64,000 nt of DNA from Sphyrna mokarran (lineage: Eukaryota), in assembly GCA_024679065.1 (NCBI GenBank), contig JAGIQG010000034.1, positions 1,674,001 through 1,738,000 of the forward strand, given 5' to 3'. The notes under the pieces are model-generated. The model ran no database searches, was not told the origin of the DNA, and saw nothing but the letters and a program-made list of their open reading frames with translations. A program made the translations under genes and the position numbers. Each line of letters begins with the position of its first letter. Position 1 is the stretch's first letter. This document shows positions 10,206-51,575 of this stretch, one piece after another.

Positions 10206-10979
10206 CAACATTTATTGCCCATCCCTAATTGCCCTGGAGAAGGTGAGGATGAGCCGCGTTCTTCAATCGTTGCAATCCATGTTCTGTGGGTCAATCCACT
10301 TTAGGAAGGGAATTCCAGGATTTTAACCCAGCGACTGCGAAGGAATATTTCCAAGTTCCATTTGGCCTAATAGAGGTGTATAAAATTACGAAGGGCAGAG
10401 ATAGGGTGCACAGCAGGAAACTTTTTCCTAGGTCGGAGGTGACAAACACAAGGGGTCACAGGTTCAAGGTGAGGGGGCCGAGGTTCAACCCAGATTCAGA
10501 GGGACGTATTTTCCACAGAGGATGATGGGGGCCTGGAATGCGCTGCCAAGCAGGGTGTTGAGGTGGACACGGTGGGATTGTTTAAGACTCACATGGACAG
10601 ACTGGGAATGGAGGGATACAAACGAATAGTCTAGTTGGAAGTGTGAGTGGGATAGGCTTGGAGGGGCTGAAGGGCCTGTTTCCTGTGCTGTTCTTTGTTG
10701 TAAGTCAGGACAGTGAGTGACTCGGAGGGAAACTTGCAGGTTCCCATCTATCTCCTGCCCCTCTCTTCCTAGGAGAAGGTGGTTGTGAATTTGGAAGGTG
10801 CTTTCTATGGATTTTTGGTGCATTGCTGCAGGGCATTTTATGGATGGTACACACTGCTGCTACTGAGTGAACATTGGGGGGAGTGGAAGTTTGCAGATGG
10901 GGTGCCAATCAAGCGGGGCCGCTTTATCGTGGATGGTATCAAGCTTCTTGAGTGTGCACACATCCAGGGGAGTATTCAA

Positions 10980-11586
10980 ACAAAGAACAGCACAGGAAAC
11001 AGGCCCTTTGGCCCTACAAACTCCCGCCGCCATTCTAACACTCAGTGAGTGCCTCAGCCTCATTCCCATCCTACTTCTACCTACAACTTTTGTCTAAGCC
11101 TCTTGGACCCTACAATAAAGGGGGTGCAAATTTAAAGAATTGTATGTATGCCAGATTAAGGGAGAACCAATTTAGGGACAATTTGTTAACACTCATCAGC
11201 CTAAAAGCACGTTTTTGGGGTGTGGGAGGAAACCGGAGAAAACCCACACAAGCACGGGGAGAATGTGGAAACTCCCACAGACACTGACCCAAGTCGGAGA
11301 TCCGACCCAAGGTCCCTGTATCTCTAAGTCAGGACGGTGAGTGGCTCGGAGGGAAACTTGCAGGTTCCCATCTATTTCCTGCCTTCTAGGAGGAAGTGGT
11401 CATGAATTTGGAAGGTGCTGTTTAAGTGATAGTCACTGAGCTGTCGTGTTGCCCGTCAGCTGGTCCAGTTTAAGCGTACACTAACGAAGTGAAGCACTAG
11501 GCAACTCTCGAAGCATCATCCAAGAGCAGCCCTCGCACGACCCATCGCGTGTGTGCCCCTTGTTGGCCAACAAGTCGGACCGAGGC
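10980..11586 (-). mobile_element. Leader-bearing SINE (degenerate B box), interrupted by ~95-bp local duplication
   Basis: Structured leader 11462-11581, decayed tRNA head, shared SINE core and CR1-type tail with TTCTTTG repeats. Confidence 0.8.
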
Positions 11587-35600: not shown

Positions 35601-36389
35601 TGACGTTACTGTGAAATTCCCTTAGTTCGGCACCTGTTTGGGTCAATGCACCTAGAATATGGCAAGAAATTGGAGCACCCAGAGGACACCCATGCAGGGA
35701 GACTCAGACTCAGGGAGAATGTGCAAACTCCACACACAGATAGTGACCCAAGCTGGGAATTGAACCCGGGTCCCTATGAAGAAGCAGTGCTAATCACTGT
35801 GCCACCCTGCCGCCCCAGTGGGGATGGATGGATAGCAACCTGATGGAGCAAAGACACATTTCAATGAATAGGCTCGAGGGGCTGAATGGGTTTTCATGAA
35901 CGTAATTAGACTTTTCACTTCTAGATTTCACTGGATTCAAATTTCACTCGCTGCCGTGGTGGGATCCAAACCCAGCTTCCCAGAGCATCACCCTGGATCA
36001 CTGGATTTACTAGTCCACTGACAATACCACTGTGTCCCCACTTCCCCATAATCATCATTTGAGATCTGAGCGATAGATTTTTTTTGCTAGTCTCAAGGGG
36101 ATTGAGGGAGAGTGAGCAAATATAGCTCAGGCCTAATCTCACTCAACAACAGAACACGCTTGAGGGGCGCACATGTTCCTATATGGGTAAAAGACACGCA
36201 GTTAACGGGAAGCAGTTTGTTCAGGGGAGGTAGGGTTGTGTGATTGTGGTGGGGCAGGGGAACATGGGGATTTCAGATATGTTGCCTGTTGGGATTTATT
36301 GCCTACAGAGAATGTGTGCGTGTGCGCGTGCGTGCACACAGTGGGGGTGGGGGGAAATGGCTAGATTTATTGCCTGTTCTGTTGGAGGG

Positions 36390-37465
36390 GTATATTTCAC
36401 ACACACGGTGATATATTTATCTCATAGGAAGGTGTACTTATCCCACAGTGGGAGGGGGGGTTATGTATCTCCCACAGGGATATATTTCTCAGTCACGGGG
36501 TGTATTTCTGGAGGTATATTTCTCTCCCACACAGGGGGTATATTTCTGGGGTATACTGCTCCCGGGGGGTATATGTCTCCCACAAGGGGTATATTTCTTT
36601 CACACATGTATATTTTGGGGGTATATTTCTCATACAGGGATATATTTCTGGATGTATATCTCTCTCACACAGGGGGTATCATTCTCTCACGCAGGGACAT
36701 ATTTTTGGGGGTATATTTATGGAGTATATTTCTCTCACACAGGGGGTGTATTTATGGGGTATATTTTTTGGGTATTTTTCTCATACACGGGTATATTTCT
36801 GGGATATATCTCTAGGGTATTTTTCTGGATGTATATCTCTCACACAGGGGGTATATTTCTAGGGTATATTTCTCTCACACAGGGGGTATATTTCTGTGGT
36901 GCATATATTTGGGGGTATATATTTCTGGGGTATATTTTTGGGGTATATTGCTCTCACACGGGGGTATATTTCTAGGGGTATATATTTCTAGGGTATATTG
37001 CTCTCACACGGGGGTATATTTCTAGGGGTATATATTTCTAGGGTATATTTCTCTCACACAGGGGGTATATTTCTAGGGGTATATATTTCTAGGGTATATT
37101 TCTCTCACACAGGGGGTATATTTCTGAGGTGCATATATTTGGGGGTATATATTTCTGGGGTATATTTCTAGGGTATATTTCTCTCACACGGGGGTATATT
37201 TCTAGGGGTATATATTTCTAGGGTATATTGCTCTCACACGGGGGTATATTTCTAGGGGTATATATTTCTAGGGTATATTTCTCTCACACAGGGGGTATAT
37301 TTCTGAGGTGCATATATTTGGGGGTATATATTTCTGGGGTATATTTCTAGGGTATATTTCTCTCACACGGGGGTATATTTCTGGGGTATATTTCTAGGGT
37401 ATATTTCTGGGGTATATTTTTGGGGTATATTTCTCTCACACAGGGGGTATATTTCTGAGGTATAT
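36390..37465. repeat. GGGGTATATTTCT(CTCACACA)-type minisatellite in Myb gene intron 1
   Basis: Dozens of 13-21-bp subunits with higher-order blocks, ending ~35 bp from the exon 1 donor. Confidence 0.92.
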
Positions 37466-37740: not shown

Positions 37741-37916
37741 GGCTCACAATCCGGCGGGCGAGCGGGAGAACGGCGCGGCGGAGCCGGAAGATCCCCCCCC
37801 CGGGGCGGGACTGCCGCCGGAAATTGCGCGCGGAAGGTGGGCGGGCGGCCGCTCCGCCAATCAGCGGCCAGGACCGCGGGGGAAGACCGGAGTTAAAATC
37901 CAGACCCGAAGGCAGC
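37741..37916 (-). promoter_or_regulatory. CpG-island promoter of the Myb/SANT-like gene
   Basis: Very CpG-rich. GC box GGGGCGGGAC 37802-37811, GCCAATCAG (NF-Y-type) ~37856-37864 and CCGGAA ETS-type cores, all directly upstream of the ATG. Confidence 0.65.
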
Positions 37917-38632
37917 GCCGGAATTCCCGTCCCGCCGGCATTCCGGTCCGGCCGGAATTCCCGTCCCGCCGGCATTCCGGTCCCGCTGGAATTCCCGTCC
38001 CGCCGGCATTCCGGTCTTGCTGGAATTCTGCTCCCGTCGGCATTCCGGTCCCGCTGGAATTCCCGTCCCGCCGGCATTCCGGTCCCGCTGGAATTCTGCT
38101 CCCGCCGGCATTCCGGTCCCGCTGGAATTCCCGTCCCGCCGGCATTCCGGTCCCGCTGGAATTCCCGTCCCGCTGGAATTCTGCTCCCGTCGGCATTCCG
38201 GTCCCGCCAGCATTACCGTCCCGCTGGAATTCCGGTCCCACTGTATTCCTGTTCCGCCGGCATTCCAATCCCACCAGTGTTCCCATCCCTTTGGCATTCC
38301 GGTCCCGCTGGTATTCCCTCCTGCCAGTATTCCCACCCTGCTGGAATTCCACTCTCACCAGTATTCCCATCCTTCCCGCATTCTGATCCGGCGGACATCC
38401 CAGTCCTGCTTCCCACCATGCCGGTATTCCAGTCCCACTGGAATTCCCATCCCATCGGCATTCTGGCCCCACCGGTATTCCTGTCCCCCTGCCAGCAATA
38501 TAATTCCACCAGCATTCCCGTCTCACTGGTATTCCTGTCCTGCCAGCATTTCCACCCTGCCGCCATTCCCATCCCGTCCTCATTCTAGTCCTGTCCTGGT
38601 CCCGTCAGCATTCCCACCTCTTCGGCATTCCA
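37917..38632. repeat. CpG-rich 17/34-bp satellite
   Basis: Unit ccgccggcattccggtc-ccgctggaattcccgtc, increasingly degenerate rightwards. Confidence 0.92.
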
Positions 38633-40544: not shown

Positions 40545-41300
40545 CCTAATCTTAACCTAACCATAATCTTCCTTATCCTGAGCAAGACCTGATTTTAACC
40601 TGACCATAACCTTCCTTAACCTGATCATAACATAACCTGAGCATAACCAGACCTTAACCTTCCTTAATCTGACCATAACATTAACTTAACCTGAGCATAA
40701 CCAGACCTTAACCTGACCATAATGTTAACTTAATTTGAGCATAACCAGACCTTAACCTGATCATTACCTTCCTTACCCTGAGCATAACCTGATTTTAACC
40801 AGACCATAATCTTCCTTAACCTGATCATAACCTTAACATAACTTCCCTTAACCTGATCATAATCTTCCTTAACCTGAGCATAACCAGACCATAACTTGGT
40901 GATAATCTTCCTTAACCTGAGCATAACTAAACTTTAACCTGACCATAAACTTCCTTAACCTGATCATAACTTTAACTTAACCTGAGCATAATCTTAACAT
41001 AACCTGAGCATAACCAGACCTTAACCTGAGCATAACCCTAATTTAACGTGAGCATAATCTAACTTAACCTGAGCATAACCTTCCTTAACCTGAGCATAAC
41101 CTTAACATAACCTGAGCATAACCTTAACTTAACCTGAGCATAACCTTAACTTGATCCGAGCAGAATCAGATTTTAATCTTCCTTAACCTGGCCATAACCT
41201 TAACTTAACCTGAGCACAACCAGGCCCCAATCTTTCTTAACCTGACCATAACCTGATCTTAATCATAACATGACTGTAACCTTAGTTTAACCTGCCTGTA
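40545..41300. repeat. Degenerate TAACCT-based tandem array
   Basis: Repeats such as taacctgagcataaccttaac throughout. Confidence 0.9.
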
Positions 41301-41875: not shown

Positions 41876-43473
41876 GGTTGGATGTGTTAGAACTTTTAAA
41901 TGCTATCAAGATAGACAAGTCTCCGGGACCAGATGGGATGTACCCCAGGTTATTGTGGGAGGTGAGGGATGTCATTGCAGAGCCCCTGGCGATGATCTTT
42001 GCGTCGTCGATGGAGACGGGAGAGGTTCCAGAGGATTGGAGGATTGCGGATGTGGTCCCTATTTTCAAGAAAGGGAACAGGGATAGTCCTGGAAATTACC
42101 GACCGGTGAGTCTGACCTCAGTGGTTGGTAAGCTGATGGAGAGGCTTCTGAGGGACAAGATTTACGAGCATTTGGAGAAGTTTAGGTTGATTAGAAATAG
42201 TCAACATGGTTTTGTAAAAGGCAGGTCGTGCCTTACGAGCTTAATTGAGTTCTTCGAAAATGTGACTGAACACATTGACGAAGGAAGAGCAGTGGACGTG
42301 GTGTACATGGACTTCAGCAAGGCATTTGACAAGGTCCCACATGCAAGACTTCTTGAGAAGGTGAGAGGCCATGGGATCCAAGGGGCTTTGGCCTTGTGGA
42401 TCCAGAACTGGCTTGCCTGCAGAAGGCAGAGGGTGGTTGTGGATGGCTCTTTTTCTGCATGGAGGTCGGTCACCAGTGGAGTGCCCCAGGGATCTGTTCT
42501 AGGACCCTTGCTGTTTGTCATTTTCATAAATGACCTGGATGAGGAAGTGGAGGGATGGGTGAGTAAGTTCGCCGATGACACGAAGGTCGGTGGTGTTGTG
42601 GATGGTCTGGAGGGATGTCAGAAGTTGCAGCATGACATCGACAGGATGCAAGACTGGGCGGAGAAGTGGCAGATGGACTTCAACGCGGATAAATGTGTTG
42701 TGGTCCATTTTGGCAGATCCAACGGGATGAATGAGTACACTATCAAAGGTAGGAGTCTTAGCTGTGTGGAAGAGCAGAGGGATCTTGGGGTCCGGGTCCA
42801 TAAGACTCTCAAATCGGCCTCCCAGGTGGAGGATGTGGTTAAGAAAGCTTACGGTGTACTGGCCTTCATTCATCGAGGGATTGAGTTCAGGAGTCAGGAG
42901 GTAATGCTGCAGCTTTATAGGACCCTTGTCAGAGCACACTTGGAGTACTGTGCGCAGTTCTGGTCGCCTCACTATAGGAAGGACGTGGAAGCTATTGAAA
43001 GGGTGCAGAGGAGATTTACAAGGATGTTGCCTGGATTGGGAGGCATGCCTTATGAAGACAGGTTGAGGGAGCTGGGACTGTTCTCCCTGGAGAGACGAAG
43101 GTTGAGAGGCGACCTGATAGAGGTTTACAAGATGTTGAGAGGAATAGATAGGGTGGACTCTCAGAGACTATTTCCCAGGGCTGAAATGGTCGCGACGAGA
43201 GGGCACAGATTTAAGGTGCAGGGAAGCAAGTACAGAGGGGATGCTAGGGGAAAGTTTTTCACTCAGAGGGTGGTGAGTGAATGGAATCGGCTGCCGTCGG
43301 TGGTGGTCGAGGCGAACTCGCTGGGGTCTTTTAAAAGACTTCTGGATGAGTATATGGGATCCAATGGGATTGGGGGTTATAGATAGGTCTATGGCTGGGT
43401 AGGTTTTGATGTGTTCGGCACAACTTGTGGGCCGAAGGGCCTGTTTGTGCTGTAGTGTTCTATGTTCTATGTT
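41876..43473 (+). mobile_element. Young 5'-truncated CR1 LINE with uninterrupted RT ORF (41854-43386)
   Basis: RT motifs YRPVSL, QHGF, DFSKAFD, GVPQGSVLGP, FADD; (TTCTATG)n tail; CACTG target duplication (41871-41875 / 43474-43478) splitting a SINE head. Confidence 0.95.
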
Positions 43474-43584
43474 CACTGCTGCCTCACAGGATATAGCAGG
43501 ACTGTTTGAATATCGGGAGGACCAAATAGTAGTAGACTATCTTTTAGTTTCGTCTCGGGAATGTCTTAGTTTTTTTTAAATGTT

Positions 43585-44065
43585 TAATTAAGTCTTATTT
43601 GTTTCTGCAGGCAATTCGGTCCACCTTGTTGACCAACAAGGGGCATGCATGCGGCATGTCGTGCGAGAGCTGCTCTTGGAGGTTGCTTCAGGAGTGGCCT
43701 GGTGCTTCATGTCGTCAGTGTATGCTTAAACTGGACCATCGGATGGGCAACATGACAGCTCAGAGACTATCGCTGTTGCTGTGCTGACACATGGATTTGG
43801 GCCTGTGTCTGCGGGAGTTTGCGCGTTCTCCCCGTGGTTGCGTGGGTTTCCTCCGGGTGCTCCGGTTTCCTCCCACATCCCAAAAATGTGCTCTTAGGCT
43901 GATTGGGTAACAAATTGTCCCTATATTGGTCCCTATATGGGAATCTTCAACAATAGGCATAGCCTAAAGTCAAGGATATGTCATTAAGACGTTAGGACGG
44001 CGGCGTGGGCTTGTTGGGCTGAAGGGCCTGTTTCCCGTGCTGTGTTGCTCTTTGTTCTTTGTTTG
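43585..44065 (+). mobile_element. Leader-bearing SINE (B box deleted)
   Basis: Acceptor-like flank, leader 43618-43737, head ...catggatttgggcc, CR1-type tail. Confidence 0.8.
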
Positions 44066-44786
44066 CCAGGAACCCCAGTTTGATTCCAGCCTCAGGTCAC
44101 TGTCTGTGTGGAGTTTGTACATTCTCCCCGTGTCTGCGTGGGTTTCCTCCGGCTGCTCCGGTTTCCTCTCACAGTCCAAAGATGTACGGGTTAGGTAGAT
44201 TGGCCGTGCTAAAAATTGCCTCTTAGCTTCCCAAGATGTGCAGGTTAGGTGGATTGGGCATGGTAAAATTGTCCATTAGTGTCGCAAGATGTATAGGTTT
44301 ATAGATGGATTACATAGAACATAGAACATTACAGCACAGAACAGGCCCTTCGGCCTTCGATGTTGCGCCGACCAATATAAAAAGCAATGACCCTCCAAAC
44401 TAAACCATTCCCCTCTCTTCCATATACTTATCAACTAACCTCTTAAACGCCACCAAACTTGGCGCATCTACAACTGCTGCAGGCAGGGCATTCCACTCCC
44501 GAACCACCCTTTGGGTAAAGAATTACCATGGATTAGCCGTGGTAAATGCATGGGATTATAAGGATAAGGCAGAGGGGAAGATCTGGGTAAGATGCAGTTT
44601 CGGAGAGTCAGCGCAGACTCAATGGGCCGAACGGTCTCTCTCTGCAATGTAAGGATTCAGTGGTTCAAGGAAAATAGCAATGAGTGTGGTCTGGCAGCAA
44701 CACTCAGTGATACAGAATAGCACCTGCCTGCATCGTGATATTTCAATATTACTTACAGTAATTTATTATTTCCAGTGTGATTTGTG

Positions 44787-47097: not shown

Positions 47098-47749
47098 TGA
47101 TCCTATCGATGGTTCTCTGAGTGGACTGTCAATGTCGTCACCAGAACTTACAAACAAGCACCAAGACCTGGTTTGCCTGATGGTGGGAAGGGCACTCCCT
47201 GTCAGATCCTTCCTACACCCCCGGAGTCTCACCTCCTCTGCACCTCGAGCTGATTGTGTGGAGAAGACAGCGCTGTCCACTTCCTTGTGGAATGTGCTAT
47301 CTCAAATAGGAGGGGAATCAACTTAAACTATCCTAATTTCCCCACTCACCACCCCATTCTGTAAACGGAAATGTGTTTAAAAATCATGATTTCCTCCTTT
47401 ATATTTTCCCTGACCGTTAAATTTAGAATGTTCCAAACCCCTATCAAAAACTTACACAGAAAATCCGGGATAAGATCAAATAAAAAGGGGTTGGTTTATT
47501 CGGCTCTGTGGAAAGGGATCCCTTTTACACTCACACGATAAATGGTAGGTAAATGGAAAGGAAGAGGTTTCAGAGCACGATCACATTAATATACAAACTG
47601 GGGCTTTACCAGTGTCCAGAGCCTAGAATCAGAAATGTTCTGTCCAAGGATTGGTTGACTGGTTATAGAATGCTCTCTTTCCAGAGCGAGATTGCCACAG
47701 TGGGAGAAGGCACTTAGAGTGAGTTAGTTTGGAGGCACAAGCTCCAACA

Positions 47750-48107
47750 GTGCTTCACGTTGTTAGTGTACGCTTAAACTGGACGTGCAACACGACAGCT
47801 CAGTGACTATCTCTGTGCTGTGCAGATACATGGATTTGGGCCTGTGTCTGTGGGAGTTTGCGTGTTCTCCCCGTGCTTGCGTGGGTTTTCTCCGGGTGCT
47901 CTGGTTTCCTCCCACACCCCAAAGATGTGCTCTTAAGCTGACTGGTGTAACAAATTGTTCCTAAATTAGTTTCTCCTCAATCTGGTTTCCAATGTGGAAT
48001 GCTGTAAGTGTAGACAAGGGTCACGGGTGGAAGAGGGAACTCACAATGTTAAAATAGTGGCGTGGGCTCGTTGGGCCGAAGGGCCTGTTTCCTATGCTTT
48101 GTTCTTA
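47750..48107 (+). mobile_element. Leader-bearing SINE, 5'-truncated inside the leader
   Basis: Begins agtgcttcacgttgttagtgtacgcttaaactggac; same head and tail. Confidence 0.8.
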
Positions 48108-51246: not shown

Positions 51247-51575
51247 ACAAAGAACAAAGAACAAAACAGCACAGGAAACAGGCCCTTCGGCCCAACGAGC
51301 CCGCGCCGCCACCTCGGTGTTCCCACTTCTACCCGCGATCCCTGTCTAAGTTGATAGATCTATGGATTAGAACCAAATTTGAGACAATTTAGGGAGAATT
51401 TGTTCTGCCAATTAGCCTAAGAGCACACCTTTGGGATATGGGAGGAAACCGGAGCACCCGGAGAAAACCCACGCAAGCACGGGGAGAATGTGCAAACTCC
51501 CACAGACACAGGCCCAAATCCATGTATCTGCACAGCACAGCGATAGTCACTGAGCTGTCGTGTTGCCCATCAAAT
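51247..51575 (-). mobile_element. Leader-family SINE, truncated before the leader
   Basis: Same B-box-less head, body and (AAAGAAC)n tail. Confidence 0.8.

Follow-up and report, generated by a model that had tools for sequence, protein, structure and literature searches.

The 64,000-nt stretch of Sphyrna mokarran DNA analyzed here (the window) holds several copies of a foldable sequence of about 120 nt ahead of a tRNA-derived repeat head, raising the question of which mobile element this sequence belongs to and whether its fold has a role. In an initial annotation, it was described as a structured RNA leader of a SINE family. The three complete copies reported there (43618-43737 on the plus strand, 63577-63697 and 11462-11581 on the minus strand) as well as the three truncated ones (near 52914-52968 and 57940-57981 on the minus strand and 47749-47788 on the plus strand) were recovered. 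The assignment to a SINE leader, however, has to be given up, as the element is virtually certain to belong to the 3′ UTR of a CR1 LINE, an autonomous retrotransposon, and the tRNA-like head behind it is a captured V-SINE head with a dead promoter.

The Element Is Part of a CR1 LINE

The element lies about 110 nt past the ORF2 stop codon of a CR1 LINE of about 4.75 kb, which has an esterase-type ORF1 and an ORF2 encoding endonuclease and reverse transcriptase (RT). The DNA upstream of the element corresponds to CR1 ORF2, in which endonuclease and RT domains were found (Pfam RVT_1 and Exo_endo_phos; PF03372, PF14529, PF00078), and the ORF2 C-terminus in loci L035 and L036 is the same as that at 43489..43509 of the window. 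ORF1, located upstream of ORF2, gave a weak GDSL-like esterase match in L192 (PF13472, E 1.2e-6, 29.6 bits, below the curated cut-off of 32.9), and for the damaged ORF1 of L036, 66% identical to that of L192, no Pfam esterase match was obtained. Among 20 loci fetched by the 5′ UTR, four are full-length, with both ORFs followed by the element at 4,121-4,134 nt past the 5′ UTR anchor, three carry the element at shorter spacing (internal deletions), and in 13 it was not matched by the strict pattern.

Upstream sequence is common to all 30 loci retrieved with the pattern for the 5′ part of the element, six of them being alike over the entire 1,500 nt examined. Moreover, 29 of 30 loci retrieved with the 3′ pattern extend upstream into a pyrimidine tract and CAG, and the window copies run into CR1 ORF2, contradicting the proposed start of the element at GGUCC. 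In 473 kb of unselected DNA (44 rows representing 39 copies after removal of five double counts, two pairs maybe being due to local duplication), the 5′ ends are scattered between +7 and -2685 relative to the head, without a fixed start. Judged by sequence comparison, the window copies are ordinary 5′-truncated LINE ends. Element-bearing copies show the frequent 5′ truncation, the 3′ hairpin and the short tandem repeat typical of CR1. Aligned with the free V-type SINEs of the window, they share the SINE-like V domain and LINE-type tail, but they have no 5′ end of their own and run into ORF2. A possible excess of truncations inside the hairpin was seen in the 473-kb sample, at numbers too small to call. 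Two pairs of loci about 45-50 kb apart, L304/L305 and L309/L310 (G000:C927:1.88-1.94 Mb), have identical 5′ ends, which suggests local segmental duplication.

In a midpoint-rooted tree of the last 450 nt of ORF2, covering 32 of 95 element bearers and 32 of 114 short-UTR copies from this genome, the 32 bearers sit on one side of a branch and the 32 short-UTR CR1s on the other, at a support of 100/99. The sampled bearers of the stem-loop thus form one ORF2 clade, for which a single acquisition is the simplest reading. The old C subfamilies are tied to ORF2 by nucleotide similarity alone, and no full-length C copy was recovered among the loci examined. In the 5′ UTR of subfamilies A, B and D, a TATA-like motif is found about 150-170 nt inside the LINE (L033:4100-4440; L192:5110-5510, minus strand; L253:880-1200), and the LINE may have two transcription start sites. 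Because the motif lies inside the element, a transcript started there would be unable to regenerate the LINE 5′ end. In L192, the first approximately 150 nt of the LINE are tandemly duplicated.

Table 1. Features of the CR1 LINE copies mapped in the window.
Feature	Position	Strand	Basis or remark
CR1 LINE copy, subfamily A, 5′-truncated, entire inserted unit	43489..44063	+	97.4% identity over 577 nt to full-length L162
End of CR1 ORF2, last six codons (G-Y-S-R-T-V) and TGA stop	43489..43509	+	Sequence
Putative 3′ splice-acceptor-like site (YTRAY-type motif, pyrimidine tract, CAG/G; CAG at 43608-43610)	43583..43611	+	Kept in all subfamily consensuses
Degenerate antisense CR1 3′ tail	43608..43641	+	25/36 identities to antisense tail, seeded comparison
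Structured element	43618..43737	+	Folding and subfamily comparison
Basal stem of the element	43618-43623 / 43732-43737	+	Predicted fold
Dispensable side hairpin	43624-43641	+	Predicted fold
Long irregular hairpin	43643-43725	+	Predicted fold
Decayed tRNA-derived V-SINE head (mutated A box; 18-nt deletion of the B-box region)	43745..43805	+	Alignment with free V-SINEs of the window
V domain	43806..43884	+	92-95% identity between LINE subfamilies
CR1-type 3′ tail (hairpin and short tandem repeat)	44007..44063	+	Sequence comparison
Subfamily B copy, 5′-truncated, with ORF2 end (stop 63788-63786)	63252..64000	-	93.8% identity with full-length L253 across 796 nt
Old (C2-type) copy truncated at stem-loop start	10977..11583	-	Interruption of about 100 nt behind the head
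Old (C2-type) copy truncated inside stem-loop	52528..52968	-	Mutated B-box region retained
Subfamily B copy truncated inside stem-loop	57620..57981	-	Sequence comparison
Copy truncated inside stem-loop	47749..48110	+	Sequence comparison
Subfamily B copy truncated just ahead of tRNA-derived head	51247..51575	-	Head-only copy at 51575

The subfamily B copy starting at 63252 extends 39 nt past the window (63252-64039). The main copy is nested: it adjoins the tail of a preceding short-UTR CR1 (42643-43474) and is followed immediately by a truncated free V-SINE and the end of an antisense CR1 (44064-44310 and 44312-44527). Self-comparison of the window also revealed three degenerate tandem-repeat arrays (36387-37465, 37916-38632 and 40546-41294).

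Abundance in the Genome and Search for Relatives

The 2.77-Gb genome is rich in CR1 and V-type SINE sequence. Exact patterns gave 2,036 matches for the 5′ part of the element, 22,195 for its 3′ part and 7,265 for a divergent subfamily escaping the latter pattern, with zero matches for the reversed-pattern controls. By exact patterns, the lineage comprises at least about 29,000 copies (22,195 + 7,265). A covariance model run over the 64-kb window did not find any distant relative beyond the six copies, screening by profile of loci totaling 0.44 and 1.28 Mb did not yield an older divergent family, and a metagenome scan gave 0 matches. A description of the element was not found in the literature searched; a repeat-database consensus may exist. 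RNA contigs, from which strand, ends and level are not readable, cover the element in four of four runs, a signal probably stemming mostly from passenger copies. Runs with a small share of words were left out of account in judging the range of the element.

Composite Organization of the 3′ UTR

Following the stop codon, the 3′ UTR starts with a spacer, which measures 103 nt in subfamily A, 81 nt in B and 19 nt in D, and continues with the acceptor-like site, the 120-nt element, the tRNA-derived head, the V domain, a variable segment and the CR1 tail. According to its alignment, the head was captured from a V-SINE and its Pol III promoter is dead, the A box being mutated and the B box mutated or deleted. 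Seven of 12 copies of the oldest class (C2) retain the B-box region in mutated form, as opposed to 0 of 143 from the younger subfamilies. ARAGORN did not predict any tRNA in the 64-kb window. From its likeness to the free tRNA-headed SINEs of the window, we take the segment behind the head to be a V domain and the captured unit a V-SINE. Between subfamilies with silent sites 61-79% identical, the V domain is 92-95% identical. In the LINE (window 43806-43884), it retains family-specific letters unlike those of free V-SINEs, and this speaks against gene conversion having kept it conserved. Spacer and post-V segment decay or are deleted, whereas the element block keeps both length and fold.

In the youngest subfamily D, with copies up to 99.6% alike, a poly-A tail replaces the short tandem repeat (L111-L130, G000:C1). 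Its members have also lost the side hairpin, and their ORF2 stop codon lies within the branch-like motif. Two D copies, L125/L126 (G000:C1:4143838 and 4144353), are arranged head to tail, the truncated one sitting directly on the poly-A of the other.

Regarding the origin of this arrangement, an ancestral CR1 could have lengthened its 3′ end through flanking DNA containing an inverted CR1 tail fragment and a tail-compatible V-SINE. The hairpin would have formed in the newly acquired flank and then come under selection. Such a read-through into an inverted tail and a downstream V-SINE is proposed because the first 35 nt of the element resemble an antisense CR1 tail. It seems that sequence moved from a SINE into an autonomous LINE.

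Predicted Fold of the Element

The best fold predicted is a long irregular hairpin on a base of 5-6 bp, accompanied by a dispensable side hairpin. Fold z-scores of the three complete copies are -7.55, -5.04 and -1.70. All of the 11 subfamily consensuses, built from rule-based classes of 155 distinct copies (193 full rows), independently fold into the long hairpin, albeit in differing register, and RNAalifold returned the same fold for 12 real representatives. The closing GGUCC/GGACC stem, already recognized in the initial annotation, is invariant in these 12 sequences. The side hairpin is degraded and then deleted in subfamily D. The combination of a three-way and a four-way junction is not borne out. 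The two hairpins distinguishing it have a pair probability of 0.00 in each of the 12 representatives, and a fold made to contain them is about 14-31 kcal/mol less stable than the free MFE. Their pairing holds in just 77 and 82% of cells and is lost in subfamily D. The A-U to G-C exchange cited as truly compensatory in favor of this junction is not one either: among 31 subfamily A copies, the 5′ G occurs in the window copy itself and nowhere else, and the 3′ C, present in 26, mostly faces an A, a mismatch in the four-way fold.

The oldest consensuses fold only weakly better than shuffles (z of -1.0 and -1.2), the central helix is missing from the fold of the B0 representative, and several pairs break in subfamily D. 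For one upper helix, two registers are possible, one of them showing the series G-G to U-A and A-U to G-C in D.

Probable Selection on the Fold

The fold is likely under selection. From C2 to D4, 34 changes have accumulated, yet 32 of 45 pairs are shared versus 4.3 expected from a null that places the real substitutions of the lineage at random matching positions (0/600 shuffles), and the MFE is -50.6 versus -30.4 in the null. By the same procedure, the other branches gave p values of 0.003 (C2 to B1) and 0.01 (C2 to A) and a count of 0/600 (A to D4). In 22 control comparisons of ORF2, at most 15 pairs were shared, as opposed to 33 and 41 for the element. This null is somewhat liberal, since with 60 shuffles each, three of the 22 controls reached p ≤ 0.05 on energy and six on shared pairs. 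The adjoining window of head plus V domain also retains its fold, with fewer changes. Five pairs of the element change on both sides, resulting in a covariation score of 0.175 that was reached by 0 of 500 shuffles; this significance is overstated because the structure was derived from the same, related sequences. Two of these five changes are doubtful, one being located in the side hairpin of D and the other in a single old copy. Pairs change stepwise via G-U, in the series U-A, U-G, C-G and C-G, U-G, U-A, and the graded subfamilies display such steps within an RNA fold likely under selection.

At the letter level, the element is 75% identical between A and D, compared to 78.5% for four-fold sites of ORF2 and 95% for the V domain. 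Between A and B, the values are 81.5% for the element and 62% for four-fold sites; as the element is more conserved in this comparison, its sequence is constrained there as well.

Proposed Role and Alternative Explanations

With a slight lean, we favor as best explanation overall that the 3′ UTR hairpin is a shape-recognized, protein-bound signal of a LINE lineage ending in a promoter-decayed V-SINE. Whether this signal would act in export, stability or localization of the LINE RNA is a matter of even chances. A protein would read the helix shape and the bulges of the hairpin in the LINE RNA rather than a catalytic core, and the bound hairpin would help full-length RNA to be exported, stabilized or localized for copying. 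Such a shape-reading partner is suggested by the retention of G-U-rich pairing in a sequence whose rate of change is close to that of silent ORF2 sites. There is precedent for a LINE stem-loop read by its shape in the I-factor localization signal, as far as described in the source cited (PMC13186709). With respect to the initial annotation, the notion of an uncharacterized functional RNA stands insofar as the element is uncatalogued in Rfam and its fold is kept beyond the matched null, but not as a SINE leader.

Alternatively, the fold might be a neutral relic, an inverted tail insertion having created the hairpin and template switching or biased RT mutation having preserved its pairing. This would agree with the antisense-tail likeness of the 5′ part of the element, with the loss of the side hairpin in the youngest active subfamily and with the thriving of sister CR1 lineages without the element (114 short-UTR copies). 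It is nevertheless distinctly improbable, as the G-U intermediates suit selection at the RNA level rather than palindrome repair and the block resists the decay of its flanks. Another alternative is a conformational switch, in which the partner of the 5′ strand would be either local sequence or the tail hairpin, some 400 nt further downstream, the latter pairing masking the RT recognition site until translation is done. The segment 43608..43641 is the strongest complement of its own tail along the LINE (duplex of -27.6 versus -18.6 kcal/mol for the next best), and long-range pairing is predicted in two older copies (P of 0.99 and 0.50). However, P does not exceed 0.01 in the other four sequences folded (A, B, D and C1), the tail variant of the two favorable copies was found in two of five C2-class tails and in no other class, and covariation between tail and 5′ segment was not seen, rendering a switch very unlikely. 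Even further from the data, and barely credible, is the SINE-leader idea, with the element as a self-cleaving ribozyme or captured ncRNA. In its favor, one could cite a stable fold spanning about 120 nt and the resemblance of one 7-nt loop to an HDV-type L3 loop, but this loop changes in subfamily D. Several LINE clades are described as carrying HDV-like ribozymes, although these sit at LINE 5′ ends and CR1 is absent from the six clades listed in the part of the source cited (PMC5786205). The processing ribozyme envisaged in the initial annotation would leave a fixed 5′ end, which is lacking among the copies, its cut would part the ORFs from the tail, and the Pol III boxes required of a SINE leader are dead. 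In line with this, Rfam gave 0 matches at gathering score in the 64-kb window and, at E ≤ 10, 0, 2 and 0 matches for the B, A and D copies, leaving no credible family match to the element. KCNQ1OT1_1 (E 0.17) and PreQ1 (E 1.1) were discarded as chance-level matches far under gathering. On inspection by eye, none of the readings of the consensuses as HDV-like, hammerhead, twister, tRNA-like, C/D-box or coding-exon sequence was upheld, in agreement with Rfam.

A further reading concerns the acceptor-like site, which might be real and regulated by the stem-loop, resulting in an unspliced coding and a spliced short RNA or in terminal-exon or 3′-end definition. In the short RNA, the 3′ UTR exon would be spliced to a donor in the 5′ UTR, and the hairpin would suppress splicing or serve in the export of the unspliced form. 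The branch-like motif, pyrimidine tract and CAG/G are kept in every subfamily even though the spacer shrinks to 19 nt. By ad hoc motif rules rather than a trained splice model, about five of the approximately 210 YAGs per LINE are acceptor-like, and among those outside coding sequence, no other has a branch-like motif and is found in A, B and D alike. In addition, subfamilies A and D share the position of a canonical 5′ UTR donor past the internal TATA motif (GTAAGT and GTGAGT, respectively), and used splice sites are reported for LINEs of human, mouse and zebrafish in the section cited (PMC3091869). Subfamily B, on the other hand, has just GTGTGC at the donor position, and the donor-acceptor junction gave 0 matches among genomic retrocopies. 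In the underlying search with four patterns, 85 and 91 copies without normal upstream sequence were found that do not show any recurrent donor and resemble ordinary truncations, with 30 of the 85 matches inspected in context. About 10 of the 91 matches to one pattern are antisense tails of other CR1s, and about 10 of the 85 share a short deletion of pyrimidine tract and CAG between two GTACTT repeats. Among the RNA contigs of four runs on L162:280-4800, none of the 15 joints listed out of 45 is the donor-acceptor joint, and one contig reads through the donor. Finally, the invariant CAGG could also be due to local or tail base pairing or to the antisense-tail origin. Regulated splicing is thus unlikely, albeit with some standing. 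The combination of splice acceptor and shape-read export hairpin into a retrovirus-like module, parting unspliced coding from short spliced non-coding RNA and with the captured V domain acting in cis after promoter loss, has to be considered rather unlikely. If true, it would offer a first direct handle on V-domain function.

Comparison With Known Systems

As far as they are described in the sources cited, canonical vertebrate CR1 LINEs (PMC13343379) and HER1 (table in PMC3747384) have the same esterase-type ORF1, endonuclease-RT ORF2 and 5′ truncation as the lineage found here, the same 3′ tail shared with V-SINEs and the high abundance reported for elasmobranchs. HER1 is a LINE of sharks and rays (PMC3747384). 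The 3′ UTR, however, comprises about 500-700 nt and is a composite of acceptor-like site, long hairpin and whole V-SINE body, whereas in sister CR1s of this genome the tail is reached within 65-136 nt of the aligned ORF2 segment. The usual view of the 3′ UTR in vertebrate CR1s is that of a short spacer plus an RT-recognized tail, and the present lineage carries a long composite one.

With V-SINEs such as HE1 of sharks and rays, the order of tRNA-derived head, V domain and CR1-type tail is shared according to the descriptions cited (PMC3747384, PMC6887750), but the unit is embedded in a LINE, lacks a working A or B box and has no 5′ end of its own. The apparent transfer from SINE to LINE is the reverse of the usual direction, as given in the part of PMC5786205 considered. 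A headless V-SINE is carried by another non-SINE element, MER6, but this is a DNA transposon. The reason for conservation of SINE conserved domains is called an open question in the sections cited (PMC6887750, PMC11481361); here, the V domain remains conserved after promoter loss and inside one autonomous element open to deletion testing.

Structured RNAs of about 100 nt at LINE 5′ ends define that end, whereas the element described here is located in the 3′ UTR and defines none, and, unlike the LINE 5′ ribozymes, it matches no ribozyme model. Retroviral constitutive transport elements are long, internally looped hairpins located toward the 3′ end of retroelement RNAs that also carry splice signals. 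The CR1 hairpin is similarly long and 3′-located, though its splice signal is putative and no Rfam match was found. The I-factor localization signal and the stem-loops bound by Egl-BicD, in the part of the source cited, are likewise bulged and, in the LINE case, tolerant of sequence and bulge position (PMC13186709). That signal lies in the coding sequence of a Drosophila element, so the analogy to the shape-read 3′ UTR hairpin proposed here would be functional, with no sequence homology expected.
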